Below, piece by piece: positions 6,301 to 61,129 of a DNA stretch of 64,000 nt. The notes beneath the pieces were generated by a model. It was not told where the DNA came from. It worked only from the letters and a program-made list of their open reading frames with translations, and searched no databases. Made by a program: the position numbers and the translations under genes. The DNA is from an uncultured bacterium (GTDB lineage: Bacteria > Omnitrophota > Omnitrophia > Omnitrophales > Aquincolibacteriaceae), in contig CAZLTL010000009.1 of the NCBI GenBank assembly GCA_964562525.1, positions 11,352 through 75,351 on the forward strand. Reading direction: 5' to 3'. The stretch's first letter is position 1; each line of letters opens with the position of its first letter.

Positions 6301-9300
6301 GTGAGACCGTTTTCACCGCGCGCATAAGTGACTGAAAATTTAAGACCTTCCCATTTATTTGCGTCGCCGGAAAAATGGTATTCCGTTTTGATGCGAGCAT
6401 GCTGATCAATCAGTTCATGATTGCCTGAAGAGTTGATGGCATTAAAAACGTCAGCAGTAATTGTTGCGGAAGCATATTGCACGATATGCGGCGGAACGGA
6501 CACCCAAGTATCGGGATGACAAGGTGCTTTATAGCAGCCTTGGTCAGTTTGCCAATAACCTGCGGTTACATAGTTTGTGTAGTTTCCGGAGTAAGTAGTT
6601 TCACCATTAACAGTTGAGCTTGAAACGGAAATGATTTGTGAGTAATTGCCTTCCGCATCATAAGCATAAAATGTTTTTGTGGTTGATTCGCTTGCCGGGT
6701 AATAGGGGCGCCAAATGGGACGATAATATTCCACATCAGGTTTGTAAGCTCGGTCGATTTCTTCATTTGTGATCGCCGGCTTTTCAATAGGTCTAAGATT
6801 ATCATATTGCTCGACTTCAATCGGGCGCTTGTAGTAATAATCATGATTTGCTGTATGAGAAATGATGGAAGCAATTTTTTGTTGTCCGTTTACAAGTGTG
6901 TAGGTGTACGATGTTTTCCCTGAGCTATAACCGTTCTTATAGTAAGAAGTGAACCACGACTCAGCCTCGATCATTCCGTTTTCGTTATAGTAAGTTGTCG
7001 AGCTTGAGGCATGATTCCAATAGCTGCGCTCTTCCTTTCTTTCAAAAGAGATAACGCTATTAAGGCTTTCCGAGAGCTGTAAGGTCCATGTCTTTTCGCC
7101 TTCATAGTAGTAGGGATACCACATCTCGACCATTTGGCTTGAAAGCGCTTGCTTATCTTCATCCGAAATTACCGGAAAAGACGAATCAACCGGCTCAACG
7201 GCTTTTTCTTCCGTGTGAAGAATGTAGTCGTATTCTTTGTAATCCAGTTTATTTTTTATGCTGAGGTTGATTTGTTTGGTGTCCGGGTCGAATGTGCCCG
7301 AATATTGTGTTCCATACCAAGTCACTGTCGCTGTGCCGTCAAGCGCGACCGAGACCTTCAAGTTATTTTGGCCGCCATCCGTTGAAGCCGGAAGCACAAT
7401 TTCAAACGGCTTTTCAATCATTTGTTTAAGCTCAATCACGCCGTCTTTATTCAATGAAATTTCATAAAGAACGCCGTCAAGCGTAACGCGGCTTTCTTTC
7501 GGGAAAGCGGCAAAAACACTTTTACCGGTACTTGCATTTTGGAAATAAATCCCAACGGTTGAACCATGAATGCCCCAAGGTGTGAACCAGTTGGCATAAT
7601 AATTTTTTCCGTTGACGCTTACTTTGGGTTGATTGTATTTGATCAAAATATCATCACCGCTTCCCATCGGAGAATCAGGTGTGCCCACAATGGCATAAGC
7701 TGTGTATTTCCCACCAGTGAAAGAATCTTGCACTAGTGGCTTTTGATCCCAATTAGCCGAACCATCGTTTGAGTATGTGAGGCGTGAGTCAAACTGATTG
7801 GAATTTTCCGGATAGTTAGATATAGATTTATAAGCCGCGATTTGCAATGCGGTTTCCATGGTGAGGTCGGCCGTCACCTTGGCGAAATCTTCTTCGCTCA
7901 TCTCGCGCGTGGTAAAAGCAGTTGTTGTGCGGCTTCCGTCGCTGTTTGTAACCGAGCTTTCAAACCAAAAATAGTATTCAGTTGTTTCGACCCAAACCGT
8001 GCTTGGGGGAGTAAGACCCATAAAAATATCTCGTCCGGCTGTAATGGTTATGTCCGCGCCGTTTGAATCTTTTCGAAAGAAGTAGCGCGATTCGTTTGTC
8101 AGTTTTCCTTCGGAATCGTGAATGGTCCAAAGCGTTTCCGATTTCACTTGTGTGTCATCGATGTAATTGTGAACGTAGGTGTAGCGGTCGCCCCAGCTGT
8201 AAGTCGTTTCTTCTTTAACCAGACGGCCCAAATGGTCTTGGACAGTTGTTTTGGTTTCACTTTCAGAAACATAAATAGAAATGATTTGTTTTGTGTTGCC
8301 TTGAATTCCGCGCCAAGTAGTGACGGTGGTTTGCTCGTCGGGCTTCAAAATTGTTTTTGTGCCTAGCAGATTTCCATTGGCATCAAAATAAGTCGCTACA
8401 GATTTGTCTTCATTTTCTGTTTTATAAGCGGCTTTTTTCTCGAAGAGCGTTTCAGCCGTTGTATTTTCTTCTGCTGAAACATCAAGCTTTTTCACGGCTT
8501 CTTCAAGAGTGACGCCCCCGTTGTTTGTCATCTTAATGTTGTATTTAATCCCGTTCAGCTCAACTTGAGCTTGTTTGGGGTATTCGACAAAAGTATTTTT
8601 GCCCATGTCGTAAATCACAACACCAAAGGGCTGAAGGCCTGTTTCTCCATTAATAACCGGAAAGCTCCAAGAAATAATTGCGTTGCGGTCTTCTAAGCGG
8701 AGATTGTTTGGCGTGACATTAAGTTCGATGTCATCACCTGTGCCCGGATTGCTATCGGCATTACCCACAACAAGGAAATAGCGACTTGTTTGAAGGTTCT
8801 CAATGACAGAGCGATAAAGAGGCGTTTCGCTCCACGAGCCGTCTTCTTTGCGAAAAAAATGGTCAGTGATTAATTTACCGGCAACTTCAGAGCCTTTTGA
8901 GAGGGCCGCAGTTGTTTTGATAAATTCTTCCAGCGAAGTAGCTGCATTTAGATTTGCAAGAAGGGGGTGGTTGGCGCGGACTCCGAACCCTGTGTATCCA
9001 GAGGCGTTCTTTCCATCCGCTGTAAAAAGATGGACGACAATGATCGATGAAATCAAGTTGATTTCTACGCGCAACTTATCACCATTTTGCTCAGTTCTTT
9101 TAATGGTTATGTTTTCAAGAATGAGCTTGCCATCACTTTGTTTTTCAATCATATGCTCTTTGACCATGTCCGACGGCAGGAAATACTGAGAGCGCTTTTC
9201 AGTTCTTAATACGGGGGTCTCTACCGTAACGATTTTGTTTAGAATGTTCCAGTTGCCGTCATAGGAAACATGAGAGATTTCTTTTCGTGCAACCGTTCCA

Positions 9301-44596: not shown

Positions 44597-45534
44597 GCAA
44601 GCGTGTTTTCGGTAAAGCCACTCGTGATGCCTACGGCGAAACACTCGTTGAGCTTGGTAAAGAAAACCCCAATGTGGTTGTTTTAGATGCGGATCTTTCT
44701 AAATCAACAAAAACATGTATGTTTCAAGCGGCTCATCCCGGTCGTTTTTTTAATGTCGGTATTCAAGAAGCGAATCTCGTTGGTGTTGCTTCCGGTCTTG
44801 CGGCTTGCGGGAAAATTCCTTTTATCTCTTCCTTCGCATCATTCCTTGTTTGCAAAGGCTATGACCAAATGCGTATGGCGGTGGCTTTCTCTGAGCTCAA
44901 TGTAAAGATGGTTGCGTCCCACGGCGGAATTTCAATCGGTGAAGACGGCGCATCCCAAATGAGCATTGAAGATATTGCCTTAATGGCAACTTTGCCGGGC
45001 GTGGCCGTGATCAACCCTGCCGATGAGTTATCCACACGCGCTTTGATTCGTGCGACTGCTGCGCACAATGGACCCGTTTATGTTCGCACCGGTCGTCCTA
45101 AGGCTCCGGTGGTTTATACTGCACCGCGCAAATTTGAAATCGGCAAAGGTGTTCTCGTGCGCGAAGGTAAAGATTTAACAATCGTTGCGAATGGTCTTTT
45201 GGTTGCTGAAGCTTTGGATGCCGCTGAGATTTTAGCGGGTCAGGGAATTCAGGCCGGTGTAATTGATATGCATACTGTTAAACCGCTTGATACCGCGCTT
45301 CTTTTGCAGGAAGCCAAGAAAACCGGCAAAATTGTAGTTGCTGAAGAGCATTCAATTTGGGGCGGTCTTTGCGCTGCGGTTTCAACTTATCTTTCTTCAG
45401 TTCATCCCTGCAAAATGAGCTATGTCGCGATTCAGGATACTTATGCTGAAACCGCAACGCCGGATGAATTGCTCGATAAGTATGGCATGCGTGCGGTGGA
45501 TGTGGTCAATGCCGCCAAAAAACTCTTCTCTTAA
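44593..45534 (+). CDS. Transketolase, C-terminal (pyrimidine-binding) subunit
   Basis: 313 aa with 'FFNVGIQEANLVGVASGLAACGKIPFISSFASF' and 'ASHGGISIGEDGASQ'. Confidence 0.85.
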   Translation: MSKRVFGKATRDAYGETLVELGKENPNVVVLDADLSKSTKTCMFQAAHPGRFFNVGIQEANLVGVASGLAACGKIPFISSFASFLVCKGYDQMRMAVAFSELNVKMVASHGGISIGEDGASQMSIEDIALMATLPGVAVINPADELSTRALIRATAAHNGPVYVRTGRPKAPVVYTAPRKFEIGKGVLVREGKDLTIVANGLLVAEALDAAEILAGQGIQAGVIDMHTVKPLDTALLLQEAKKTGKIVVAEEHSIWGGLCAAVSTYLSSVHPCKMSYVAIQDTYAETATPDELLDKYGMRAVDVVNAAKKLFS

Positions 45535-47239
45535 GTTCGGAGCCCGGAGCCCGGAGCTTCGAGATGCATCTTTTTCTAAAATTTTACCCATAGTTTTTCT
45601 TTTCTTTGGCCTCTGGGCTCAGGCCACTGGTCTCGCAGATTCCGCGACGGGTGAAAAAGGTATGGTGGTCACTCAGCATCCGCTCGCGACTGAAGCCGCG
45701 CTTGAAATATTGAAAAAAGGCGGCAGTGCGGCCGATGCGGCAATTACAGCCCAGCTTGTTCTCAATGTTGTTGAGCCGCAAGGTTCAGGTTTAGGCGGCG
45801 GCGGTTTTTTTCTTTATTACGACCGTGTTCAGCGCAGTGTGACGAGTTATGACGGCCGCGAGGCTGCGCCCGCGTCCGCTCATCCCGAAATGTTTTTGCG
45901 CAATGGCACACCGATGCCTTTTTTCCCCGACCGTATTACCGGGGGGCTGCCTGTCGGCGTTCCGGGAACACCTGCTTTGATTCAAAAGATTTATGACAAG
46001 CATGGCAGCGGAGTTTTTTCACTGACGCAATTAGCTGAGCCTGCCGTCAAAATTGCCGAAGAAGGTTTTACCGTTTCTAAAACATTGGCAGCAAAACTTG
46101 CCCAGCATGCGGATCGCTTGCGTCAATTTCCGGAAACCGAAAAAATCTTTTTTAATCAGGGACAGCCGCTTAAAGAAGGCGAAACTTTAGTCCAAAAAGA
46201 TTTAGCCCAGACCTTGAAGCTTTTAGGTGAAAAAAAAGCGGATACTTTTTATCGCGGAGAAATCGCGGATGCTATTGTTGAAGCGGTTCGATCCTCACCT
46301 GTTAATTCAGCTGCGCTCAATAAATCTGATTTAGAAAATTATGCCGTTATTAAACGTGATCCTGTTTACGGCAATTACCGTGGGCTGGATATTTTAGCGC
46401 CCGCGCTTCCGACTTCCGGCGGCATTGTTTTAATCGAAGCTCTGCAGATTTTAGAAAATTTCAGTATTTCCGACATGGGTTGGGATTCGCAGGCGCTGCA
46501 TTATCTAAACGAAGTTCAGAAAATCGCTTTCTTTGATCGTTTGAAACTGGGTGATGCCGATCTGAAAGTTTCCGTCGAGAAGCTGATTTCGAAAGATTAC
46601 GCGAAAGAAGCCGCCCAAAAAATTCAGCCTCAGAAAGCCATGCGCACTGCGGCAATGATTCCCGAAGAAGGTTTGCAAACGACACACATTTCAATCATGG
46701 ATCGCGCCGGCAATTTAGTGAGTTGGACTTCAACCATTGAAGCGCCTTTTGGATCAGGCATTACGGTTCCCGGCTACGGATTTTTACTCAACAATGAGCT
46801 CACGGATTTCGATGCCGAACCGCGCGATGCGCAGGGAAATTTAAAGCCTAATGCCGCGCAACCATCAAAGCGTCCGCTCAGCAGCATGACACCGGTTTTT
46901 CTTTTTAATAAGGGTAACCCTTATATGATTTTGGGTTCGCCGGGCGGCACGACTATTATTGGTTCAGTTTTAAATACCATTGTGAATTCCGTTGATTTTG
47001 CATTGCCTTGTGAAGAAGCCGTTGCCAAAGAACGAATGATTTTCCGCGGACAAAAAATTGAGATGGAGCCAGCGATTTTCAACCATCCTTTTATTCGGTT
47101 GCAGCTTGAACTTTGGAGCCATGATGTTGAAAAAGCGGAAGTCATCGGCAATGTTCAGGCGATTTGTTTTGATGCGAGGTATCAGCAGATTGTGGGGGTG
47201 TCGGACCCTCGCGGCGAAGGTAGCGCGGCCGGATATTGA
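45509..47239 (+). CDS. ggt: Gamma-glutamyltranspeptidase (periplasmic, Ntn-hydrolase)
   Basis: 'GGGGFFLYYD', 'TTHISIMDRAGNLVSWTSTIEAPFGSGITVPGYGFLLNNELTDF' and the autoprocessing site '...SSMTPVFLF'. The track start (45422) lies deep inside tktC. The in-frame ATGs at 45500 and 45509 give a KN-rich n-region followed by ILPIVFLFFGLWAQA|TG, a signal peptide. Confidence 0.8.
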   Translation: MPPKNSSLKFGARSPELRDASFSKILPIVFLFFGLWAQATGLADSATGEKGMVVTQHPLATEAALEILKKGGSAADAAITAQLVLNVVEPQGSGLGGGGFFLYYDRVQRSVTSYDGREAAPASAHPEMFLRNGTPMPFFPDRITGGLPVGVPGTPALIQKIYDKHGSGVFSLTQLAEPAVKIAEEGFTVSKTLAAKLAQHADRLRQFPETEKIFFNQGQPLKEGETLVQKDLAQTLKLLGEKKADTFYRGEIADAIVEAVRSSPVNSAALNKSDLENYAVIKRDPVYGNYRGLDILAPALPTSGGIVLIEALQILENFSISDMGWDSQALHYLNEVQKIAFFDRLKLGDADLKVSVEKLISKDYAKEAAQKIQPQKAMRTAAMIPEEGLQTTHISIMDRAGNLVSWTSTIEAPFGSGITVPGYGFLLNNELTDFDAEPRDAQGNLKPNAAQPSKRPLSSMTPVFLFNKGNPYMILGSPGGTTIIGSVLNTIVNSVDFALPCEEAVAKERMIFRGQKIEMEPAIFNHPFIRLQLELWSHDVEKAEVIGNVQAICFDARYQQIVGVSDPRGEGSAAGY

Positions 47240-47240
47240 T

Positions 47241-47361
47241 CGTTTATTGAAAAAGGTCATTTGCGGCGTTGCAAACATCGCTTCCTTGTGCGGCGTAGGT
47301 TCTCACTACGCCTCCGCGGGCGCTTGTTTGCGCCTGGCATCTGAACCTTTTTGAATAAACG
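47241..47361 (+). repeat. Repeat family A, copy 1 (~120 nt; candidate structured RNA / 3'-UTR element), starting 2 nt after the ggt stop
   Basis: cgtttattgaaaaaggtcatttgcggcgttgcaaacatcgCTTCCTTGTGCGGCGTAGgttctcaCTACGCCTCCGCGGGCGcttgtttgcgcctggcatctgaacctttttgaataaacg. Three nested stems: outer cgtttattgaaaaagg/cctttttgaataaacg, middle gcaaaca/tgtttgc, inner ggcgtag/ctacgcc. Confidence 0.6.
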
Positions 47362-47413: not shown

Positions 47414-48007
47414 ATGAAAAAAAAATCGAAGATTAAAAAGACGGACAAGCTGCTTGGCGAGGGAAATTTTCTCAAGCTTTGGGATCGTGATTCTTGGGAG
47501 TTTGTATCGCGCAAGAATTGCACAGGGGTTGCGATTATTGTGGCGATGACACCGCAGAAAAAAGTGGTGTTCGTGGAGCAGTTTCGTGTGCCTGTCGCAA
47601 CATCTGTGATTGAGTTGCCTGCCGGAATTATCGGCGATAAAGACAAGGCCGAATCGATGCTGAAAGGCGCACAGCGCGAGCTGTTTGAGGAAACGGGATG
47701 GTGGCCGCGCAAAATGAAGGTTTTGGTATCCGGCCCTGCAGCAAGCGGAATGTCTTGTGAAGAGCTCACTTTCTGTTTGGCTTCCGATTTAGTTAAGCGC
47801 GGCGAAGGCGGCGGTGATGAGAGCGAAGACATTACTACGCATGAGGTGCCGTTGGCAAAAGTTGAAAGCTGGCTAAAACAGCAGCAGAAGAAGGGTAAGA
47901 AGATAGACCCTAAAATTTTCTCCGGTATTTATTTCTTGCAAAAAAAATCTTTGTCATTCCCGCGCAGGCGGAAATCCAGACTGGATCCCCGATCAAGTCG
48001 GGGATGA
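47414..48007 (+). CDS. NUDIX hydrolase (ADP-ribose pyrophosphatase-like), with its 3' end running into a family-B palindromic repeat
   Basis: Nudix box 'AESMLKGAQRELFEETGW' (GX5EX7REUXEEXGU). The last ~19 codons (SLSFPRRRKSRLDPRSSRG*) are encoded by the repeat at 47951-48010. Confidence 0.7.
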   Translation: MKKKSKIKKTDKLLGEGNFLKLWDRDSWEFVSRKNCTGVAIIVAMTPQKKVVFVEQFRVPVATSVIELPAGIIGDKDKAESMLKGAQRELFEETGWWPRKMKVLVSGPAASGMSCEELTFCLASDLVKRGEGGGDESEDITTHEVPLAKVESWLKQQQKKGKKIDPKIFSGIYFLQKKSLSFPRRRKSRLDPRSSRG

Positions 48008-48010
48008 CAA
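47951..48010. repeat. Repeat family B: ~60-bp nested palindrome ttgtcattcccgcgcaggcggaaatccagactggatccccgatcaagtcggggatgacaa
   Basis: Outer arms ttgtcattcccg / cggggatgacaa and inner arms ggaaatccag / ctggatcccc. A shorter relative lies at 42080-42112. Confidence 0.5.
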
Positions 48011-48030
48011 TCACAAGGAGTTTCACCCTT

Positions 48031-48381
48031 ATGTCAAAGATTGTCATTTATCAAAAACCAACCTGCACGACTTGCAAACAAGTTTATGCGGCATTGAAAG
48101 AAGCGGGCGTTGATTTTAATGCGGTGAATTATTATCTCGAGCCCATTTCAAAGACGAAGCTCAAAGAGCTTGTTAAGAAAATGGGCATTTCCGCGCGGGA
48201 GCTTTTTCGTACCAAAGAAGATATTTATAAAGAGCTGAAATTAGCCGGAAAAGAAATGTCCGATGATGCAGCGATTGATTTAATGACGAAGCATCCCGAC
48301 TTAATTCAGCGGCCGATTGTGGAAAAGGGAGCGAAGGCAATTTTGGCTCGTCCTTCCGACAGACTAAAAGAAATCCTCTAA
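48031..48381 (+). CDS. ArsC/Spx-family thioredoxin-fold protein (YffB-like)
   Basis: MSKIVIYQKPTCTTCKQ ... LIQRPIV matches the ArsC/Spx fold with its N-terminal CxxC-type cysteine. AAGGAG RBS 9 nt upstream of the ATG at 48031; the track's TTG at 48004 lies inside the repeat. Confidence 0.65.
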   Translation: MSKIVIYQKPTCTTCKQVYAALKEAGVDFNAVNYYLEPISKTKLKELVKKMGISARELFRTKEDIYKELKLAGKEMSDDAAIDLMTKHPDLIQRPIVEKGAKAILARPSDRLKEIL

Positions 48382-48500
48382 ACCATTGAAAAAGAATCAT
48401 CTGCGGCGTTGCAAGCGGCTCTTCCTTGTGCGGCGTAGGTTTTTACTACGCCTCCGCGGGCGTTTGCTTGCGCCTGGCATCTGAATCTTTTTGAATGGTT
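48382..48500 (+). repeat. Repeat family A, copy 2, starting immediately after the TAA of the ArsC-like gene
   Basis: aaccattgaaaaagaatcatctgcggcgttgcaagcggctCTTCCTTGTGCGGCGTAGgtttttaCTACGCCTCCGCGGGCGtttgcttgcgcctggcatctgaatctttttgaatggtt. The outer stem differs from copy 1 but still pairs (aaccattgaaaaag/ctttttgaatggtt); the middle stem is gcaagc/gcttgc. Confidence 0.6.
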
Positions 48501-50277: not shown

Positions 50278-52754
50278 AGACTGCGGGATGGGCATCTATT
50301 TTTCGCCGTGAAACCGCGGCGTATTTCGGATCACCGGTCGCGGCAATTTTTCTTATGATTTTCGCCGGTCTTTCCGGCGGCCTTTTCATGACCGCCTTTT
50401 TCCTGATTAATCAGGCGGATATGCGTACTTTTTTCGAGCTCTTGCCTTGGCTTCTTAGCATTTTTCTCGCAGCGCTGACCATGCGCAGCTGGGCCGAAGA
50501 CCGCCGCGGCAACACATTGGAATTGCTTTTAACCTTCCCGATGAATAGCTCTGCGCTTGTCATCGGAAAATTTTTAGCCGCGCTGCTTTTTTATACTGTC
50601 GCGCTCTGCTCAACCTTTTTAATTCCCGTCATGCTTTTTACTTTGGGCACCCCTGATTTGGGGCAAATCGCTTCCGCTTATTTGGGAGCTTTTTTCCTCG
50701 GAGCTTTTTTCCTCGCGGGCGGTCTTTTTATTTCCGGGTTTTGCCGCGATCAAATCGTCGCATTTGTCCTGACTTTACTTTTTTGCCTGGCGCTTTATTT
50801 GTTGGGTCAGAACATTGTCGCGGAAACGCTGGATGGCTGGATTGCGGGTTTTGGAACGGCTTTGCGCGCGGCATTGGGTGCAGAGCCGCATTATGCGATT
50901 TTTGTCCGCGGCGTGATTGATTTACGCAGCGTTGTTTTCTTTGTATCGGGAGCAGGGTTGCTGTTGCTATTAAATGCCTACTGGATGGACTCGCGCTCGC
51001 GCCGAAACGCCTTGCCTGTGTTTCTGGGAGCTTGCGCGCTTTGTTTCGGAATTTTTATTGCTTTAAATTATGTTTTGCGTCCGCTGGCGTTGCGCGCGGA
51101 CTGCACCGAAGGAAAAATTTATACTTTGGCGGATGCGAGCCGGAAGATCTTAAAAAAATTAGCAGGCCCCGCTTTGATTAAACTTTATGTTTCGCCGCGC
51201 GACAAAATGCCCACCGCCTTTAAGTCGTTGGAGCGCGATTTAGTCAGTAAGCTGGATGAGCTGAAGCTGGCTTCGGGCGGCAAAGTGAAATATGAAGTGG
51301 TGCATATGGAAGCCTCCAACGCCCTTGATTCCGAAACCGCGGAAAACACAGCAGAGGGACAAGTTACAAAAAAAGGTGTTTATCCTTTTCAGGTGCAATC
51401 GGTAGAGTCGGATCAGGTGGAGTTGAAGCTGGTTTATTCCGCGATGACGATTTCTTATTTGGAGAAACCGGAAGATATTATCCCGCAAATTTATCCCGGC
51501 GATTTGGGTGGGTTGGAATACAAACTCATTTCGAAGCTTTATAAAATGACTTTTGAAAAGTATCCCAAAATTGCTTTGGTTGCGCCGATGGAAGAACGCG
51601 CGATGAATTCCGAAACCGCCGCGATATTGTCGCAACTCATGGGCGGAAAAATGCCGGAGCTGGATAAAGAAGATCACTATGAAGTGCTGACTCGCATTCT
51701 TCAATACGAGGGATATCCGTTTGACCGTATCGCGCTTTCCGAAGCCGAGCCTTTAACCCAGGAGCATAGCGCGCTTTTCCTCATTGAGCCGCGGCTTTTG
51801 TCTGACCGTCAAAAATACGAAATTAACCGCTATTTGCGTTCGGGCGGATCTGTTTTTATGGCGGTGCAAAATCAGGAGTACAACTATGTTCCTGAAGGCC
51901 GCCAAATTAAAATCGAACCCGAATTAAGAAACCCGCGAGTGAACGACTTGCTCGTCAAGTGGGGGTTGTCGGTCAGTGAAAATATGCTTTTGGATGAAAG
52001 TCAGGAAACGGTTTCGATCGGTGCCGGCGGGCTTTTTGACATGTCGATTCCGCTAAAACTTCCGATTCATGTTTTGGTTCCGCCGCAGGGCTTAAACCAA
52101 AAAGTGGCGATGATGGAAGAAGTGGGATCTTTGTTCTATTTGTGGGGCAGCGCGGTCGAAAAGCAAGAAGCGCTTCCGGCCGGCCTAACTTACACTTCGT
52201 TGTTCTCTTCCAGCGTCAATTCGCATCTCAGTGCTTTGCCCCCGACGCCGAAAATTAGTTTTGCAGAGCTTCGTGAAGCGCCTGTGCTAAAAAAAGGGCC
52301 TTTTGATTTAGGTGTGATGGTTGAAGGTATTTTTCCCGATGCTTATGAAGGTAAGCCTGTGCCGGCGTGGGATGAAGAACCGGACGCCGTCCCGCAGGGA
52401 AGTGTTAGTGAGCTAACGCCTCCCCAGGGGACGGCGTCCGAAGAAGTTAAGCCCGGCAAGTTGATTTTAATCGGGTCGGCAACCATCTTGCAAAACAACT
52501 TGATGCGCGGCAGCGGTCATTACAATCTCGCCATGAATGTGCTGGATTCTTTAACTTTCGGCGATGATTTGATTGGCGTGCGTTCGAAGCGAATGGTAGA
52601 CCGAACCATGCCCAAAATCTCGCGGAATGAGAAATTAATTTGGCGTATTTTGGTGACTTTTTTTGTGCCGTTTATTTTGGTTGTATTAAGTCTCTATCGC
52701 GTTGTCGCGGCATCCCGCGAAAAACAGGTTTATCTCAAAAGTTTGTCCGCGTAG
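50274..52754 (+). CDS. ABC-2-type permease fused to a GldG-like extracytoplasmic domain
   Basis: 826 aa. The N-terminal ~250 aa have 6 hydrophobic helices (ABC-2). A large soluble domain follows, then a C-terminal anchor LIWRILVTFFVPFILVVLSLY typical of GldG. Confidence 0.65.
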   Translation: MKTAGWASIFRRETAAYFGSPVAAIFLMIFAGLSGGLFMTAFFLINQADMRTFFELLPWLLSIFLAALTMRSWAEDRRGNTLELLLTFPMNSSALVIGKFLAALLFYTVALCSTFLIPVMLFTLGTPDLGQIASAYLGAFFLGAFFLAGGLFISGFCRDQIVAFVLTLLFCLALYLLGQNIVAETLDGWIAGFGTALRAALGAEPHYAIFVRGVIDLRSVVFFVSGAGLLLLLNAYWMDSRSRRNALPVFLGACALCFGIFIALNYVLRPLALRADCTEGKIYTLADASRKILKKLAGPALIKLYVSPRDKMPTAFKSLERDLVSKLDELKLASGGKVKYEVVHMEASNALDSETAENTAEGQVTKKGVYPFQVQSVESDQVELKLVYSAMTISYLEKPEDIIPQIYPGDLGGLEYKLISKLYKMTFEKYPKIALVAPMEERAMNSETAAILSQLMGGKMPELDKEDHYEVLTRILQYEGYPFDRIALSEAEPLTQEHSALFLIEPRLLSDRQKYEINRYLRSGGSVFMAVQNQEYNYVPEGRQIKIEPELRNPRVNDLLVKWGLSVSENMLLDESQETVSIGAGGLFDMSIPLKLPIHVLVPPQGLNQKVAMMEEVGSLFYLWGSAVEKQEALPAGLTYTSLFSSSVNSHLSALPPTPKISFAELREAPVLKKGPFDLGVMVEGIFPDAYEGKPVPAWDEEPDAVPQGSVSELTPPQGTASEEVKPGKLILIGSATILQNNLMRGSGHYNLAMNVLDSLTFGDDLIGVRSKRMVDRTMPKISRNEKLIWRILVTFFVPFILVVLSLYRVVAASREKQVYLKSLSA

Positions 52755-52776: not shown

Positions 52777-54123
52777 ATGAAAAAAAATCAGATTCTTATT
52801 TTGGGAATGATTCTCGCCGTGCTTTTCGGTATTGCTGCCGTTCAAAAAGCGCAGGAGAAGCGTGTGCCCGCCGGTGAGCATCGCCGGGAAGTTTGGAAGC
52901 CTCTGATTCTTACTGAACAAGTGACGCGTATTGTTTTTTCAAAACCAAAGCATCCGCCGCTTTCTATTTCGCGTCAAAGCCAAGGATGGAAAGTGGATAC
53001 GCTTTCAGGTGTTGCCGGGGATACTCAAAAAGTGAATGAGCTTCTCGCTCAACTGAATCAAATTCAGGCGGAATGGCGCGCCGAAGGGGAAGAGTATTTT
53101 GAGCGTTTCGGAGTGGGTGAAGAGCAAGCCTTCCGTTTGCAGGTGTTTAATGCGGAAGGCGGGGCCCTGCTTGATTTTTACATTGGTGTGAAGCGCGCAG
53201 GACAAGGTGTTTTTATCCGTTTGCCGGGGAAGCCTAAGATTTATTATGTTGCCGAAAACTTGCCTGCACTCTTTGGACTTTACGCGGATTTAGAGCCCGC
53301 CGCGCCGCTGCCGATTTTTTTCGCGGATTTAAGATTGGTACCCGAAACTTTTGAGCAAATTCAACGCTTTGAATTAACGGAGTTTCAGAATGGTCGGAAA
53401 ACAACGCTTGCGGCCCTTGAACGCCCCGTAGTTGAAGCCGGTGCGCCGTGGAATTTCATTGCGGAAATGGGTTCGTTTTCTCCCGGCTTTGAAAAAATCG
53501 AAAATTATTTGGCAACGTTAGCGGGCGCACATGCTGAGAATATCGCGCCGCCCCAAAGCGGATGGAAACCGGAGCTTGAAATCATGGTTCGGGATGCAAA
53601 GGGCAAGGTTCTTCGGCTTGAGTTTCTTAAAGTGAAGGAAGCCGTTTCTGGTGGAGCCGAAAGATGGCTTGTGAAGCGTGAAGATGCGCCGCAGATCTAC
53701 GAAGTATCGGACATGGTTGTGAATGATTTGAAAACTCAAGACGCTGCGCTGATCGAAGATAATCCGCTGCGGCTTGAAATTGATCAAGGCTATTCGGTGG
53801 AGATTCAGGACGAAAAACGGACGGATGTTTTTTCGCATGCTTCAGGTTGGCCTTCTGCCGCTGCGATATTGGATGCCGCATCACGGCTGCGCTTTCTGAG
53901 CCGGGAGTCCGGAGTCACCTCGGCGGATTTGCAGGGTTTTCCGCCGACTCACCGCCTTAAAATTAAGCGGCTAGGTGTGGATGTCGTGGAATTAAGTTTT
54001 TATGCCGCAGATTCGAAACTGCGCGAAATTAAAACAGTGATTTCAGGCCAGAGCCCAGTTTATGTTGTTAGCCGCGATTTTTTTGAAACTATTTTTATTC
54101 CGACGGATGCGGCCCCAGAATAG
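52777..54123 (+). CDS. Conserved hypothetical protein with an N-terminal membrane anchor (DUF4340-like by gene context)
   Basis: ATG at 52777 ([23 protein letters not shown]). Follows the GldA/GldF-G-like operon, where such proteins typically occur. Function call from context only. Confidence 0.45.
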
Positions 54124-54171
54124 GGGACAGACCCCTTTGTTGGGTTTGTTTGGGAACGGGGTCTGTCCCCT
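54122..54171. repeat. Repeat family D hairpin, copy 1 (aggggacagacccc-22nt-ggggtctgtcccct); putative terminator, overlapping the DUF4340-like stop
   Basis: 14-bp perfect stem. The loop ends ...tgggaac, as in copy 2. Followed by tgatatacTTTTTTg. Confidence 0.5.
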
Positions 54172-54188
54172 GTGATATACTTTTTTGC

Positions 54189-54983
54189 ATGAAACCTTAT
54201 CTTGATTTGTTACGTCACATTTTGGAACACGGCACCAAGAAAACCGACCGCACCGGAACCGGCACCACCAGCGTTTTTGGTTATCAAATGCGTTTTGATC
54301 TTGCTCAAGGGTTTCCGCTTGTTACCACCAAGAAAGTTCATCTTCGCTCAATCATCCATGAATTGCTTTGGTTTCTTAAAGGCGAAACGAATATCAAATA
54401 TTTGAAAGATAATAATGTTTCCATTTGGGATGAATGGGCGGACGCGAATGGTGATTTAGGACCGGTGTATGGTAAACAATGGCGACGCTGGGAAACAGCA
54501 GACGGACGCGTGATTGATCAGGTTTCTCAGCTGATCGAGCTGATTAAAAAATCACCTGATAGCCGGAGGCTGATTATTTCAGCGTGGAATGTCGGCGAAA
54601 TCGACAAAATGGCTTTGATGCCGTGCCACACGATGTTTCAGTTTTATGTCGCGGACGGAAAGCTTTCTTGCCAGCTTTATCAGCGCAGCGCGGATGTTTT
54701 TCTGGGCGTGCCGTTTAATATCGCAAGTTATGCGCTTCTCACCATGATGATCGCGCAAGTTTGTAATCTGAAGGTGGGTGATTTTGTGCACACTTTCGGC
54801 GACGTACACATTTATTCCAATCACATGGAACAGGTCAATTTGCAGTTATCGCGCGAGCCCAAACCGCTTCCGCAAATGAAAATCAATCCCGCCGTAAAAG
54901 ACATTTTTAGCTTTAAGTTTGAAGATTTTACGCTGGAAAACTACGATCCGCATCCTCCTATCAAAGCCCCCGTCGCTGTTTAA
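54189..54983 (+). CDS. thyA: Thymidylate synthase
   Basis: [26 protein letters not shown], '[24 protein letters not shown]', '[10 protein letters not shown]' (catalytic Cys), '[17 protein letters not shown]'. The ATG at 54189 is preferred over the track's TTG at 54150, which lies inside the hairpin. Confidence 0.9.
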
Positions 54984-55104
54984 GATCAAAAGATAAGGGC
55001 TCGTCTACTGCGTCACAGCCTTCACTTCCTCCTGCGGCGTATTGCCGCATACGCCTCGTCGGGCGTTTGTCTGTTCCTTGTATCCAAACCCTTCTTTTTT
55101 GATC
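54984..55104 (+). repeat. Repeat family A, copy 4 (most divergent), starting immediately after the thyA TAA
   Basis: gatcaaaagataagggctcgtctactgcgtcacagccttcaCTTCCTCCTGCGGCGTATtgccgcATACGCCTCGTCGGGCGtttgtctgttccttgtatccaaacccttcttttttgatc. The inner stem is changed compensatorily (ggcgtat/atacgcc) and the outer stem is gatcaaaag.aagggtttgg/ccaaacccttcttttttgatc. Confidence 0.5.
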
Positions 55105-55135: not shown

Positions 55136-55188
55136 GCAAAGGGGTCAGACCCCAATGCGAGTTCGGGAACGGGGTCTGACCCCTTTGC
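55136..55188. repeat. Repeat family D hairpin, copy 2 (gcaaaggggtcagacccc-17nt-ggggtctgacccctttgc)
   Basis: 18-bp perfect stem, loop ...gttcgggaac. Together with copy 1 it brackets thyA in direct orientation. Confidence 0.5.
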
Positions 55189-55433: not shown

Positions 55434-56150
55434 TTAAAAGCGGGTGGTGAGCTTGATTAGCCAATCAGGGTATTGTTCAAGAACCCAAATTTCAATTTCG
55501 CTCATGATTCCGGTTAAGAGAAGTGCCCCCAAAACTAAAAAAGTGAGCGCTGTTAAAAACTTAATAACAGGCGCGACTTTTGTTAGATTAGCTTTTATCT
55601 TTAACATGGCCGCCTGAGAAGACATAGCCATGATGAACATGGGCGTCGCAATTCCCAAAGAGAAGCTAAGCATGACAATAAAAGCATAAGGCAAGTTTTT
55701 GAGTTGGGATGCAAGCGCAATCGCCGCTCCAAGAGTCGGTCCTGCGCAAGGTGCCCACATTAAGCCAAGAAGGAAACCAAGAATAAAGGTTCCTCGTTTG
55801 CCTTCCCATTTAACGGAGCTAATCTTCGTTTGGAATCCGCTCAGAGATCCTGATGCAGCAAAAGCAAGTTTCTGATAAAGCGGTTGAATTAGCAGAATCG
55901 TTCCAAAGACGATCAATAAAAGAGCGGTGATTTTTTGTAAAAGTTCACGAGTCAGGCCCAGAGAACTTCCTACAGTTGCAATTAAAAATCCGGAGAGTGT
56001 AAAAGAGAGGATAAGTCCGGCGATTAAAAAAAGTGGACCGCGCCGATTTTCGTTCCATGCACTGATAATAACGATGGGCAAAATGGGAAGAACGCATGGC
56101 GATAGAATTGTTACCACGCCCGCTAAATATGCCAATATCATGCTTCCCAT
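55434..56150 (-). CDS. CcdA/DsbD-family thiol-disulfide transmembrane electron transporter
   Basis: 238 aa with 'AGVVTILSPCVLPILPIVI' and a second 'WAPCAGP' cysteine motif; 6 TM. Confidence 0.75.
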   Translation of the reverse strand: MGSMILAYLAGVVTILSPCVLPILPIVIISAWNENRRGPLFLIAGLILSFTLSGFLIATVGSSLGLTRELLQKITALLLIVFGTILLIQPLYQKLAFAASGSLSGFQTKISSVKWEGKRGTFILGFLLGLMWAPCAGPTLGAAIALASQLKNLPYAFIVMLSFSLGIATPMFIMAMSSQAAMLKIKANLTKVAPVIKFLTALTFLVLGALLLTGIMSEIEIWVLEQYPDWLIKLTTRF

Positions 56151-56172
56151 TTTGCCCTCCGAGTGTTTTTAA

Positions 56173-56568
56173 TTACATGCCTGATTTAACAAGATCAAGA
56201 ATTTTTGATTCGTTTGTTTCGCCTGTGAGACGACCTGTCTCTTTATCGCCCTTATAAACCACTAAAGTGCTTTGCATAGTAGCGCCTAGTTTTTCTACTG
56301 TGGCTTTGTCTTTCATGAAATCCACTTTAAAGAAAACAGCCTCTGGATACATTTCGGCAGCTTTCGCTAAGGCTGGCTGCTGTGCCTTGCAAGTCGGGCA
56401 ACCTTGTTTATATACATCAACAACAATAGTCTTGCCCATGGACTGTGCTTGCATGAATGCTTCTGAACTGAATGGTTGCGCGTGTCCGTCTGCTTTCGCT
56501 GCAGGGCTAAAAGCAAGCGTCATCGCAATCAGAGCAGTGCCGGTTAAAATTTGAGATAGAACTTTCAT
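56173..56568 (-). CDS. Periplasmic thioredoxin-family protein (CxxC = CPTC)
   Basis: Signal peptide MKVLSQILTGTALIAMTLAFSPAAKA, then 'VVDVYKQGCPTCKAQQPAL'. Paired with ccdA downstream, as in cytochrome-c maturation or periplasmic reduction systems. Confidence 0.75.
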   Translation of the reverse strand: MKVLSQILTGTALIAMTLAFSPAAKADGHAQPFSSEAFMQAQSMGKTIVVDVYKQGCPTCKAQQPALAKAAEMYPEAVFFKVDFMKDKATVEKLGATMQSTLVVYKGDKETGRLTGETNESKILDLVKSGM

Positions 56569-56711
56569 AAAGGAACTCCTTTTTCGTTAAATGGACTTTT
56601 CGTTCGTAATTCGTTAGCATGACGACGAAAAGTTTGATTTGTTTTTCAATGATTAATACGAACCATGATTAGAAATGGTTACAATTTATTTTTATGTAAC
56701 CTCGAGGGCTT

Positions 56712-57254
56712 GTGATCCGAATATACAATAGTGACCAGTGGGATGGATGGATGAAACTGGCATTAGTCGGAGATGCTCAAGGGTATCATCATCTGTTGAC
56801 GAATATACGGGAATGGCTCATGGCTTATTTTTCAAAACGAGTTCCGCGAGCTGTTTTGGAGGATTTGGTTCAGAGCACGCTGCTCAGCATTCATGAAAAA
56901 AGGCATACTTTTGATCCTCAATATAAAGTAGGCCCATGGGTTGCTGCTGTGGCGAGGCATCGGTGGATTGATTATTTGCGTGCGCATTCGAGCAAGGTGG
57001 AATGCGAGCTAAGTGAGAATGTGCCGGAAAAAGAAGTGATACAGACTTTTTTAGCGACGGAAGATGTAGCTGAGTTACTGCGTTTAATTCCGAAGGATCA
57101 GGCTGAAATGATTGAATTGGTAAAACTCAAGCAGCTTAGCGTTGAAGAAGCTTCTAAAAAGACTGGGCAGAGCGAAGCGAATGTGAAGGTGCTCGTGCAT
57201 CGGGGAATAAAGAAGTTAATTGAAAAAGTTGGGGTAGTGAATGAACGATTCTAA
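56712..57254 (+). CDS. ECF-type RNA polymerase sigma factor (sigma-70 family group IV)
   Basis: Region-2-like 'LVQSTLLSIHEKRHTFDPQYKVGPWVAAVARHRWIDYLR' and region-4 HTH 'LSVEEASKKTGQSEANVKVLVHRGIKKL'. The start is GTG (track) or the internal ATG at ~56748. Confidence 0.7.
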   Translation: MIRIYNSDQWDGWMKLALVGDAQGYHHLLTNIREWLMAYFSKRVPRAVLEDLVQSTLLSIHEKRHTFDPQYKVGPWVAAVARHRWIDYLRAHSSKVECELSENVPEKEVIQTFLATEDVAELLRLIPKDQAEMIELVKLKQLSVEEASKKTGQSEANVKVLVHRGIKKLIEKVGVVNERF

Positions 57255-57888
57255 AAAATTGATTGATCAGCTTACGGCAGACTGTAAACCCGTTTCCGTC
57301 ATCAAAAACCGCGATGGATTTTTGTTGAGCGCGACCACTTTGATCGGAATAGGCTTTTGCGTTTTGTTTTTTATGGGCATTCGACCTGACTATCAGGCAG
57401 CGATCGAGTCCCGGGTCTTTTTTTGGAAGCCAGGAATTTTTGTTTTCATTTGGCTTTCGAGTTTGCTGTTTATTTTGAAATTATCTCGGCCGCATGAAAA
57501 AGCTCCAAAGTGGGCTTGGGCAACATTACTGGCAGCATTTCTATTTTTATTGAGCCAATTTAAATTGCAGCTTGATCAGTATTCTTGGACATTTATGGTT
57601 CAAAGTTTAGCTTCGAGTTCTGCTTGGGTTTGTTTTGGAACCATTACCGGATGTGGGCTTTTAGCATTAGGGTTGATTTGGCATTTTTGGTTGCGACGCA
57701 CAGCGTCTTCTTCACCATCTCAGCTTGGGTTTTGGGCTGGAGTGAATGTGGGCTCATTAGCGGCAGCGGCTTATGCGGTTCATTGTCCGATGGATACGGC
57801 GACTTACATCTTTTGCTATTATTGTTCACCCCTCTTCATTTTCTCTGCTTTCGGCGCTTGGTTAGGTAAATCCAAGCTGCGCTGGTGA
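57241..57888 (+). CDS. Membrane anti-sigma factor, NrsF/DUF1109-like
   Basis: Overlaps the sigma gene by 14 nt. 'LIDQLTADCKPVSV' matches the DUF1109 N-terminal signature, followed by ~6 TM helices. Confidence 0.55.
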   Translation: MNDSKKLIDQLTADCKPVSVIKNRDGFLLSATTLIGIGFCVLFFMGIRPDYQAAIESRVFFWKPGIFVFIWLSSLLFILKLSRPHEKAPKWAWATLLAAFLFLLSQFKLQLDQYSWTFMVQSLASSSAWVCFGTITGCGLLALGLIWHFWLRRTASSSPSQLGFWAGVNVGSLAAAAYAVHCPMDTATYIFCYYCSPLFIFSAFGAWLGKSKLRW

Positions 57889-58430: not shown

Positions 58431-60239
58431 ATGGATTTTCAAGTTGTTTGGACTTTAGTGATTTTGGTTGGCATGATGACTGCGTTGGCGGTCGGAATCG
58501 GCAGCGCCGATTTTGTTATGCTCGCGGCATTAGCGGCTCTCCTCATGGGAGGTGTGATTTCTCCGAAGGAAGCTCTGGCCGGGTTTTCGAATGAAGGTAT
58601 GATTACGGTTGCTTTGCTTTTTGTGCTCAGCGAAGCCATTCGCAACACAGGCGCATTGAACGGTGTTGTGACAAGTTACTTAGGCAGTCAAAAAAGTAAA
58701 TCCACATCACGTATGATGCTGAAAATGATGGCGCCGATCGCAGCTCTTTCGGCATTTTTGAATAACACGGCAATCGTTGCGATTTTTACTCCCACGGTAA
58801 AAAAATGGACGAGTCAGCTTAATCTTCCCGCGTCAAAATTTTTTATTCCTCTTTCTTATGCCACGGTTTTAGGCGGGTGCGTGACGCTGATCGGAACTTC
58901 CACAAACCTGATCGTGCACGGACTTTTGCTGCAAAAGGGAATGAAGGGGTTTTCTTTTTTTGAATTAGCGTGGGTTGGAATTCCGTGCACATTGGTCGGC
59001 ATGGTTTATCTCATGACGATTGGCAAAAATCTTTTGCCGAATCACAAGGGCGCGACTGATTTAATTACCGAAAATAGCCGTGAGTATGTCGTTGAAATGA
59101 AAGTGAAAAAAGATTCGCCGCTCATCGGAAGATCAATTGAACAGGCGGGTTTGCGCAATTTGCGCGGGCTATTCTTGGTAGATATTGAACGCGGCGGAAA
59201 GTCGCTCGGAACCGTGGCTCGCTCAGAAATTTTGGCTCCGGAAGACCGGCTTTTATTTGCAGGTGTAACATCCGCAGTGCTCGACTTGCAGGAAATTCCG
59301 GGGCTTGTACCGGCAGAGCATGAGACCTTCGAGGGAGATTTGAAATCATTGCGAATGCATTTGGTGGAAGCAGTTGTTTCATCCAATTCACCGATTTTGG
59401 GAAAGACGATTAAAGAATGCGGTTTTCGTTCCAGATACGATGCCGGTGTGGTTGCGGTTCATCGTAACGGTGAGCGTATTCAGCAAAAAATTGGCGATAT
59501 TGAATTGCGCGCGGGCGACACTTTGCTTGTTTTTGCGCAAGAAGATTTTGTTCAAAACTGGCGCGACTCTCAGGACTTTTATCTTATTTCCTATTTGGGC
59601 GATAAACCGCCGGTTGTTTCATGGCAGGGATATGCTTTGATTGCGATGACGGTTGTCATGATTGCCTTCGCGGTCATCGGCGAAACGGCAGATTTAAAAC
59701 TTTTTGGCAACCATATCAGTATTTTTCAAATGGCTTTGCTTGGCGTGATTGGCGCTTTTTTACTCGGAACTTTGCGTGCTCGCGAAGCGAAGCAGGCGTT
59801 GCGAACGGATGTTTTAATTGCAATCGCATGTTCATTCGGAATCAGTAAAGCTCTTGAAAATACGGGGATCGCGCAATATTCCGCGGATCAAATGGTGTCG
59901 GTCTTGTCTCATTGGGGACCCTATGCGGTATTAGCCGGAATTTATTTGCTCGCGAATTTATTTACGGAGTTGATGTCCAATAACGCGGCCGCTGTTTTGG
60001 TTTTCCCGATTGCTTTGGCAATTGCCGAGCAAATGGGCGTGAGTCCGATGCCGTTTGTGATTGCGGTCACAGTTGCGGCATCCTATGGGTTTGCGACCCC
60101 GATCGGTTATCAAACGCATTTGATGGTGCAAAGCGCCGGCGGATATAAATTCAGCGATTATTTGAAAGTGGGACCGTTACTCAACTTGATTTGCTTTGTT
60201 GTGGCGGTATTGATTATCCCTCTGATCTGGAAATTTTAG
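58431..60239 (+). CDS. SLC13/DASS-family permease with two internal TrkA-C regulatory domains
   Basis: 602 aa. Hydrophobic N- and C-terminal halves flank soluble repeats 'GRSIEQAGLRNLRGLFLVDIERGG' / 'GKTIKECGFRSRYDAGVVAVHRNG' (TrkA-C-like). Confidence 0.7.
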   Translation: MDFQVVWTLVILVGMMTALAVGIGSADFVMLAALAALLMGGVISPKEALAGFSNEGMITVALLFVLSEAIRNTGALNGVVTSYLGSQKSKSTSRMMLKMMAPIAALSAFLNNTAIVAIFTPTVKKWTSQLNLPASKFFIPLSYATVLGGCVTLIGTSTNLIVHGLLLQKGMKGFSFFELAWVGIPCTLVGMVYLMTIGKNLLPNHKGATDLITENSREYVVEMKVKKDSPLIGRSIEQAGLRNLRGLFLVDIERGGKSLGTVARSEILAPEDRLLFAGVTSAVLDLQEIPGLVPAEHETFEGDLKSLRMHLVEAVVSSNSPILGKTIKECGFRSRYDAGVVAVHRNGERIQQKIGDIELRAGDTLLVFAQEDFVQNWRDSQDFYLISYLGDKPPVVSWQGYALIAMTVVMIAFAVIGETADLKLFGNHISIFQMALLGVIGAFLLGTLRAREAKQALRTDVLIAIACSFGISKALENTGIAQYSADQMVSVLSHWGPYAVLAGIYLLANLFTELMSNNAAAVLVFPIALAIAEQMGVSPMPFVIAVTVAASYGFATPIGYQTHLMVQSAGGYKFSDYLKVGPLLNLICFVVAVLIIPLIWKF

Positions 60240-60388: not shown

Positions 60389-61129
60389 GTGTTTATGGAA
60401 ATAAAATCTAATCAAGGTGAAAATTTTATAGTGGCCTATCTTGACATAATGGGCTACCGAGATTTAATTAAAACAACAGAGCCTGAAAAAATAAAAGAAG
60501 CCATAGAAGGAACTCTTAAATCTCCCGAGTCTATTAGTGGTGATGCAGCTGATTTAGCAAAGTCCATAGAACTGCAGCTCCTGAGTGATTCGATAATTCT
60601 TGCTTTAAATTTAGACAGTTTAGAGCAGTACCAAATTGGATTTAAGATAAATCAATTTTTGGCGATATGCGCAGCTTTGTATGTACTTTTATTTTGTCAG
60701 CTGAAAAAACCAATAAGAGGTGCGGTCGCAATAGGGCAATACTATATGGAGCAGCTTCAAACTCGCTTTGCCAATCACTTTTTGTTCAGTAAGGCGCTTG
60801 TTGAAGCGTATGAGCTTGAAAATAAACACGCTGATGTTCCCAGAATATTGTTAACCCAAAAGCTGGGCGCTCTTTTTACCGGCGAACCTCACTCTAAAAA
60901 TAAAATCAAAAAAGATTTTGATGGCTTATGGATAATTGACCCATACGAATTTGTTCGGTTTTGTGATGGTGTTAACAAATCACGCGATGTGGAAAATCTT
61001 TATATTAAAAATTTAAAGGAAGTATTAAATTCGGATATTGAATTAAAGGTAAAACGTAAGTACGAGTATATGCGAATGTGTCATAATCAGAAAATGATGG
61101 CGAATGGTCTAAATGAATTCTTGATTTGA
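60389..61129 (+). CDS. Hypothetical protein (246 aa), AT-rich orphan gene, possible divergent nucleotidyltransferase/cyclase-palm-like fold
   Basis: 'NFIVAYLDIMGYRDLI' resembles the first metal-binding motif of class-III cyclase / GGDEF / mCpol palm domains (hh.hDI.G[FY]..L), and 'LLSDSIILAL' sits about 50 aa later where the second acidic motif would be. The resemblance is weak. Visibly AT-rich, and flanked upstream by repeat A3. Confidence 0.5.
   Translation: MFMEIKSNQGENFIVAYLDIMGYRDLIKTTEPEKIKEAIEGTLKSPESISGDAADLAKSIELQLLSDSIILALNLDSLEQYQIGFKINQFLAICAALYVLLFCQLKKPIRGAVAIGQYYMEQLQTRFANHFLFSKALVEAYELENKHADVPRILLTQKLGALFTGEPHSKNKIKKDFDGLWIIDPYEFVRFCDGVNKSRDVENLYIKNLKEVLNSDIELKVKRKYEYMRMCHNQKMMANGLNEFLI

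Follow-up and report, generated by a model that had tools for sequence, protein, structure and literature searches.

High-copy extragenic palindromes of the REP/REPIN (BIME) type can form hairpins of about 100 nt as RNA or as single-stranded DNA, are vertically kept over long periods, and occupy 3' UTRs and intercistronic spacers; REPINs have been described as long-lived hairpin repeats (PMC8049555). In Escherichia coli, REPs located at most 15 nt from a stop codon stall ribosomes and lower expression, as PMC12306157 cites Liang 2015, and the share of REPs abutting stops ranges from 11% (RepRanger) to about half (260/496, Liang 2015 via PMC12306157).

Bacterial MITEs such as Correia/NEMIS, ERIC and Chunjie are imperfect palindromes of 100-200 bp that lie inside intact operons and have conserved terminal inverted repeats and target duplications. 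They are transcribed as RNA hairpins. Transcripts containing Correia elements are cleaved by an RNase, and Chunjie, a Geobacter element, measures 178-235 bp and has TIRs and DRs (PMC10969869). Two further systems involve folded DNA. Integron attC sites are imperfect hairpins (57-141 nt) directly 3' of an ORF stop, in a single orientation, in which structure is kept above sequence and mismatches are conserved; they carry R''/R' AAC...GTT boxes and form cassette arrays. IS200/IS605 elements have a separate hairpin at each end, act as folded single strands, and insert in an oriented manner 3' of a short target with no target duplication, their orientation tracking replication.

Here we describe family A, a set of imperfect hairpins of ~120 nt that shares features with each of these systems. 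We read it as an interspersed extragenic hairpin repeat with two unusual properties, a conserved apex and a stop-codon rule. The family is apparently undescribed so far. Searching the available literature for its core sequence returned unrelated primer matches only, and the multicopy sequences listed in supplements to two Geobacter genome papers do not include it. The earlier note on this DNA had named a match to a known Rfam family as grounds for refutation; Rfam 15 gave zero matches on the whole window (the 64,000-nt stretch of DNA analysed here) at gathering score, and nothing overlapping 47241-47361 or 48382-48500 at E<=10.

Family A is, like REPs and REPINs, high-copy, extragenic and persistent, with up to three copies per 8 kb and orthologues kept across species, and it occupies the same kinds of spacer. 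In a REPIN, however, the conserved REPs form the arms and the apical spacer varies, whereas in family A the apex is conserved and the arm helices vary. The GTAG-type foot is absent from the ends of family A, where GTAG occurs only within the inner stem of some subfamilies, and the strict sense orientation is unlike that of REP/REPIN. About 80% of family-A copies abut a stop, as against 11% to about half of E. coli REPs in the figures cited above. The likeness to MITEs lies in size, imperfect palindromy and location inside intact operons, but the centre is conserved and the termini vary: O-type termini (subfamilies are defined below) differ from copy to copy, while S and T ends are conserved as GTTTCC...GGAAAC. 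Family A shows no TA duplication, which speaks against its being an ERIC or Correia element. With a conserved centre, variable ends, no target-site duplication (TSD) and no foot, it is neither a classical MITE nor a REPIN, and would add a hairpin-repeat family whose logic is inverted relative to both.

As in attC sites, the hairpin stands directly 3' of a stop in one orientation and conserves structure above sequence, with conserved mismatches such as the G.G in TGAAAAAG/CTTTTTGA. It differs in its long conserved central sequence and in its neighbours; we rejected an attC site on a base that lacks RYYYAAC...GTTRRRY, and a cassette array on copies that follow ggt, thyA, eno and clpP, housekeeping genes in conserved synteny. 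With IS200/IS605 it shares oriented placement 3' of a short target, no target duplication and the capacity of single strands to fold, but it is one end-to-end hairpin and its orientation tracks the neighbouring gene rather than replication.

Four copies in the 64-kb window

The earlier note had described four copies on the + strand, each abutting a stop codon. They are present as described, and are listed here with their covariance-model (CM) scores, together with the core of copy 1 and a terminator near copy 2.

47241..47361, + strand: copy 1, 121-nt hairpin 3' of ggt (stop TGA 47237-47239); CM 133 bits
47281..47322, + strand: conserved apical core of copy 1, CTTCCTTGTGCGGCGTAG-loop-CTACGCCTCCGCGGGCG
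48382..48500, + strand: copy 2, 119-nt hairpin 3' of the ArsC-like gene (stop TAA 48379-48381); CM 136.6 bits
48532..48565, no strand assigned: canonical two-way intrinsic terminator ~30 nt 3' of copy 2, separate from the element
54984..55104, + strand: copy 3, 121-nt hairpin 3' of thyA (stop TAA 54981-54983); CM 107.6 bits
60239..60363, + strand: copy 4, 125-nt hairpin 3' of the SLC13/CitMHS permease gene (stop TAG 60237-60239); CM 124.1 bits

The preceding ORFs (45422..47239, 48004..48381, 54150..54983 and 58431..60239) leave gaps of 1, 0, 0 and -1 nt before copies 1 to 4, the G of TAG being common to stop and element in the last case. The gene identities were also borne out: the ORF before copy 1 matches G_glu_transpept (GGT), and those before copies 2, 3 and 4 were read in syntenic relatives as ArsC, Thymidylat_synt (ThyA) and CitMHS/Na_sulph_symp. 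Copies 2 and 3 are flanked by convergent genes, as claimed, and copies 1 and 4 by co-oriented genes, with a NUDIX gene starting 53 nt further 3' of copy 1 and the next ORF 26 nt downstream of copy 4. The + strand carries all four copies and most genes of the 44-64 kb interval. Homologues of ThyA assign the source DNA to Candidatus Omnitrophota.

Each copy folds as a single long imperfect hairpin (dG -36 to -62 kcal/mol; z -4.0 to -7.0 against shuffles) with the outer, middle and inner stems reported previously, the inner being GGCGTAG/CTACGCC or GGCGTAT/ATACGCC. Copy 3 is the most divergent of the four. Neither repeat finding nor the covariance model returned a fifth copy in the 64-kb window, and core-less backbones were likewise not found there.

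Core, arms and distribution of family A

The conserved apical module spans ~45 nt and reads CTTCCTTGTGC-GGCGTA-loop-TACGCC-TCCGCGG. The arms are lineage-specific, and their helices retain pairing rather than sequence. A search with the pattern CTTCCTNNTGCGGCGTA-N6-11-TACGCCTC, whose chance expectation in the genome collection we estimate at ~0.1, retrieved at least 108 loci. Among the matches listed, carriers included several Omnitrophota MAGs, Planctomycetia-labelled MAGs and many Geobacter/Geobacteraceae, the isolates Geobacter argillaceus ATCC BAA-1139 and Geobacter sp. OR-1 among them, as well as Syntrophobacteraceae and other Thermodesulfobacteriota. The core also occurred in single MAGs labelled Bdellovibrionales, Auribacterota and Dongiaceae; such single-hit labels need caution, and the Dongiaceae-labelled contig holds a Geobacter-type locus. 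At least two robustly sampled phyla contain the core, and the viral contigs searched held no copy. Omnitrophota and Desulfobacterota (Thermodesulfobacteriota) thus have the family in common, its carriers including Geobacter and further bacteria of sediments, with the single-hit lineages in need of confirmation. Several Omnitrophota loci contain two to three copies per 8 kb, and a feature this abundant and unannotated will confuse the prediction of terminators, sRNAs and operons in the carrier phyla.

Clustering of the arms separated subfamily O (Omnitrophota, Planctomycetia-labelled MAGs and the window copies) from G1, G2 and G3 (Geobacter), S (Syntrophobacteraceae) and T (other Thermodesulfobacteriota). 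O and G1 are homologous end to end (...GCTGAAAAA..CCATCT...core...ATCTGA..TTTTTGAGC...); S and T arms differ from these, and S-type arms hold small internal palindromes. At least five types of arm bear the same apex, and O-type arms can carry other apices, namely a 17-nt mini-hairpin in locus L109 and unrelated sequences in L118 and L067, which indicates that the element is modular. Since the loci were retrieved with an exact core pattern, the invariance of the core is partly by construction, and the covariance model revealed variant cores in 10 of 52 O-type copies at the same loci. On inspection, no K-turn, loop E, T-loop or hairpin-ribozyme motif was matched in the element.

Pairing and covariation

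The window's four copies alone are insufficient to prove covariation, and the proposal that the element is structured and selected for pairing was assessed on 52 copies aligned with model R1, itself built from 40 O-type copies. Standard pairs occupied 95.3% of cells, and 24 of the 32 pairs showed double-sided changes (289 cells). None of 500 shuffles reached the observed covariation, and sliding one partner by 1-3 columns lowered pairing to 27-52%. As this alignment was fitted to R1, we note that a MAFFT alignment was similar, with 17/32 pairs compensated. Compensated variants were found even in the near-invariant inner stem (GGCGCAC/GTGCGCC and GGCATAG/CTATGCC), and orthologues likewise differ by compensated changes (the enolase pair L070/L041; L098 against L017). 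The covariation is thus far above the controls, and this part of the proposal stands.

In alignment A3, the dinucleotide in a 5' TGC[xy]CG motif was linked to the base in a 3' CCT[N]GCA motif, with counts of 16 for TG-T, 8 for GG-T, 5 for TT-C, 4 for TT-T and 4 for GT-A; we take this to be a pair that is mostly, though not always, G.U.

Placement directly behind stop codons

MFE-based hairpin boundaries were unreliable, and we used core-anchored distances and helix extension instead. Among 100 copies with sufficient flank, 73 were preceded on the same strand by an ORF of 100 codons or more whose end lay at most 120 nt before the core, with a sharp peak in the stop-to-core distance at 39-42 nt, whereas a convergent ORF ended within 120 nt downstream of the core in only 30/100, with no peak. 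Where the hairpin base could be located, the stop lay -5 to +6 nt from the first paired base in 45/60. Strand specificity relative to the preceding gene was also evident in L091, in which two opposite copies 735 nt apart each lie 3' of their own ORF, so that orientation tracks the gene and not the chromosome.

The statement that copies always start behind a stop proved too strong. It describes most O copies well (27/34), and stop adjacency was similarly found in 10/13 of G1/G3 and 7/11 of T, but in only 3/16 of S. Some copies have no adjoining ORF, and reversed copies occur. L041 contains a tail-to-tail pair, and at L042 4586-5049 two inverted copies bracket tRNA-Ala (4717-4792) and tRNA-Leu (4829-4915); each starts within a few nt of a tRNA, at the 3' end in one case and at the 5' end in the other.

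A co-oriented start lies within 150 nt, often 13-40 nt, after 20/34 O copies, which makes most copies intercistronic; 9/13 G1/G3 copies also precede a co-oriented gene, and few copies are followed by terminators. The upstream genes are diverse (GGT, ThyA, enolase, ClpP, LpxA, LptE, CobA, AOR, permeases, tRNA) and share no functional theme, and no recurrent neighbouring protein family was found at the copy loci. Three simple alternatives were rejected: read-through or an in-frame coding extension, as stop-to-core distances lack 3-nt periodicity; a small minus-strand ORF, which by eye is not conserved across subfamilies; and a TA or stop-codon target duplication, which is inconsistent. The rule is nucleotide-precise and strand-specific, no known insertion mechanism accounts for it, and we know of none that places DNA exactly 3' of in-frame stop codons.

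Conservation, gain and loss

Orthologous copies proved to be conserved like the gene that they adjoin. At the AOR (aldehyde:ferredoxin oxidoreductase) locus of seven Geobacter-type genomes, the copies are 0.74-0.94 identical and the gene 0.79-0.90, while the next 150 nt are at ~0.5, which is random. As the copies match the gene in identity while the flank is randomised, purifying selection acts on them. L109 and L043 likewise have orthologous copies 3' of ggt. In L043, at 70-72% identity of the gene, the retained element shows about four differences besides a 17-nt insertion.

The informative empty sites were reached through ThyA homologues; a GGT scan of metagenomes yielded just two close relatives. 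Relatives at 72-83% DNA identity (L189/L190, which are GCA_035436425.1, and L191, L192 and L194) lack the element 3' of ArsC (L189, L191, L192) and 3' of thyA (L191, L194; next start 7-10 nt away). In L189, the permease gene ends in TAA, followed after 3 nt by the DHFR start, with no element between, and a different, divergent copy lies directly 3' of the thyA stop, and copy 3's orthologue survives behind it as a 3' half only. Protein C-termini are identical whether the element is present or absent. No palindrome similar to the outer stems is present at the empty sites, which indicates that the stems arrive with the element, and no consistent target duplication was found around the hairpins, including those of young, near-identical T-type copies. 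Insertion into terminator loops was rejected on the same empty sites and on canonical terminators, which lie downstream of the element.

That copies are missing, replaced or truncated at the same sites in relatives indicates that the family is, or was, mobile. The earlier note had argued for selection on structure rather than copying of a selfish repeat; the selection on pairing is upheld, but the either/or is not.

Interpretation

We favour, with a probability of roughly 0.45, the reading that family A is a mobile, or formerly mobile, hairpin akin to REPs, REPINs and MITEs, whose conserved apex serves as a recognition module and which is co-transcribed and kept as a 3'-UTR or intercistronic RNA hairpin. 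A mobilising enzyme would read the conserved apex on one strand and spread copies, which would insert directly 3' of stop codons in sense orientation with no target duplication and be co-transcribed with the upstream gene. They would be retained because the RNA hairpin does good, or at any rate no harm, when it comes first in the 3' UTR or intercistronic spacer. Such a hairpin could block 3'-exonucleases or define a processing site, 3'-exonuclease protection and RNase III-type processing being ordinary roles of hairpins of this kind. It could also modulate translation termination, its start falling within the ~12-15 nt downstream that a terminating ribosome covers; the stalling of E. coli ribosomes at REPs near stops, as summarised in the source cited above, would be the nearest mechanistic precedent by analogy. 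Several points speak against this reading: the conserved part is the apex and not the termini, with neither a TSD nor a conserved target, the reverse of a MITE or REPIN; S-type copies have the same core without the stop-codon rule; the constancy of the core owes something to the exact search pattern; no mechanism known to us would explain the placement behind stops; and no transposase, RAYT or other partner was found in the loci and the window, although the crude motif scan for RAYT/HUH/Y1 genes across the 108 loci and the window is a weak test. The cultivable Geobacter carriers make it testable how a DNA element finds gene ends, and how the hairpin affects translation, coupling and mRNA decay.

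Rather less probable, in our view, is a dedicated, non-mobile cis-acting structured RNA that acts on termination, coupling or decay, its conserved internal loops and apex being the binding site of a protein or of the ribosome, with copies that arise rarely by duplication and are maintained by function. Such an RNA would fit the conservation of orthologous copies beside a randomised spacer, the sense orientation with stop abutment, and the conserved asymmetric loops. It would also fit the asymmetry of the model scores, which are ~130 bits for the sense and ~25 bits for the antisense strand, the mostly G.U pair beside helix 3, and the three U.G pairs of the conserved helix TTGTG/CGCGG (columns 60/99, 61/98 and 63/96), which occasionally switch to U-A or C-G. 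In the variable helices, however, G.U occupies 11/624 cells against 45 non-pairs and is no commoner than other mismatches, unlike in ordinary RNA families. As G.U is rare in the arms and U.G pairs are kept in the core only, the arms look like DNA-type palindromes, and the core like a strand-specific RNA or single-strand recognition site. A non-mobile RNA is also at odds with dozens of copies behind unrelated genes with no functional theme, with relatives in which a given site has no copy, another copy or a shortened one, with S-type copies that are mostly not behind genes, and with tail-to-tail pairs and reversed copies beside a tRNA 5' end.

The almost purely Watson-Crick arms would instead suit a site that works as single-stranded DNA, in which the folded strand is the substrate of a recombinase or HUH nuclease (REP/RAYT-, IS200/IS605- or attC-like), or a DNA-protein site, any RNA role being incidental. 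We consider this unlikely. The lack of a TSD and the oriented placement 3' of a short motif, both known from IS200/IS605, are in its favour, as are copies that are nested or replaced and the over-representation of TA-containing stops, above all TAG, among those abutted (22/45 against a rough background of ~24%; TGA is depleted). GC skew is positive across window 1-64000 (0.04-0.14), so that the + strand is probably the leading strand and the folding strand would be the lagging-strand template in the window, but gene direction is a confounder of this argument. Within 1-3 kb of one another, copies can point in opposite directions, each in line with its own gene (L091, L038, L041 and L042, the last three with mixed orientations within 3 kb), which argues against a replication-strand rule. 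Insertion at random stop-like triplets would, by our estimate, give ~20-25% true-stop adjacency, as against ~80%. The ends lack a conserved AAC/GTT or GTAG foot, the upstream genes are syntenic housekeeping genes and not cassettes, and the weak test described above detected no Y1/HUH gene in the loci and the window.

Equally doubtful is a stop-anchored RNA device, in which termination would open the lower helices and the U.G core would then act on the ribosome or a partner protein. If it existed, ribosomes might be passed over the hairpin base to the next cistron, analogous to shunting or coupled re-initiation, or programmed stalling and decay might follow, and the placement behind stops would reflect selection or a translation-linked insertion route.

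The earlier note had considered a terminator, and an intrinsic or bidirectional terminator or attenuator, with an A-tract, hairpin and U-tract (TGAAAAAG...CTTTTTGA), is suggested by the O and G1 arms, which have A5 at their 5' side and T5 at their 3' side, and by a T-run a few nt past the stem in G1 copies. We think it very unlikely, since the T-tract adjoins no more than 2-3 bp of stem, situated below a large internal loop, is engaged in pairing and has another helix after it, in contrast to the stable GC-rich stem directly before a U-tract at the transcript end that an intrinsic terminator has. Furthermore, the A/T tracts are reversed in S, T, G2 and G3 arms, and a co-oriented gene follows the majority of copies (20/34 O, 9/13 G1/G3). 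Copy 2 has its own canonical terminator 30 nt behind it, which shows that termination is not the element's part there.

Chance similarity or an assembly artefact can be dismissed, even though one related contig (L110) looks chimeric: the 5'-half core pattern has four matches in the 64-kb window, exactly the four copies, against 0.4 expected, CM E-values are 1e-27 to 1e-36, and the covarying element occurs at 108 or more other loci, in isolates and many independent MAGs.

Associated repeats and variable segments

L110 (4230-4569) is ~82% identical to the window over ggt, yet identical over copy 1 and the following spacer. The contig ends in low-complexity sequence, and L110 is probably a chimeric assembly, or possibly the product of recent exchange.

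The 17-nt mini-hairpin (TGTGGTCGTATGACCAC and variants) is inserted into family-A copies of relatives and, on its own, occurs in a 3' UTR as well (L109 4316-4332; L043 ~6047-6063; L189 398-415 and ~6953-6969), and it looks like a nested micro-repeat. The sequence RGTCGTAKGACY occurs in six Omnitrophota loci and is absent from the window. In L081, L092, L039, L084, L099 and L104, a second conserved palindromic repeat (GTGTCTAATCCGGGGTTTCCGGATGGACAC) lies 3' of the S-type copies, and the two form BIME-like composite arrays.

Two segments near window copies are absent from L189. A 246-aa ORF without a Pfam family (60389-61129) lies between copy 4 and DHFR, and a block encoding a DsbD-like protein, thioredoxin, an ECF sigma factor and an NrsF anti-sigma factor (55434-57888) lies between thyA and an Rrf2 gene; the absence of the latter marks a variable region adjoining copy 3.

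The window also contains hairpins of other types. One, at 52381-52440, bears no relation to family A; its arms measure 28 nt and are 82% complementary, and its loop is 4 nt long. A second hairpin family, built on GGGGTC(A/T)GACCCC, is represented at 54122-54171, before thyA, and at 55136-55188, ~30 nt after copy 3, and in a relative (L191, ~428-455) a copy of it lies directly 3' of the ArsC stop.
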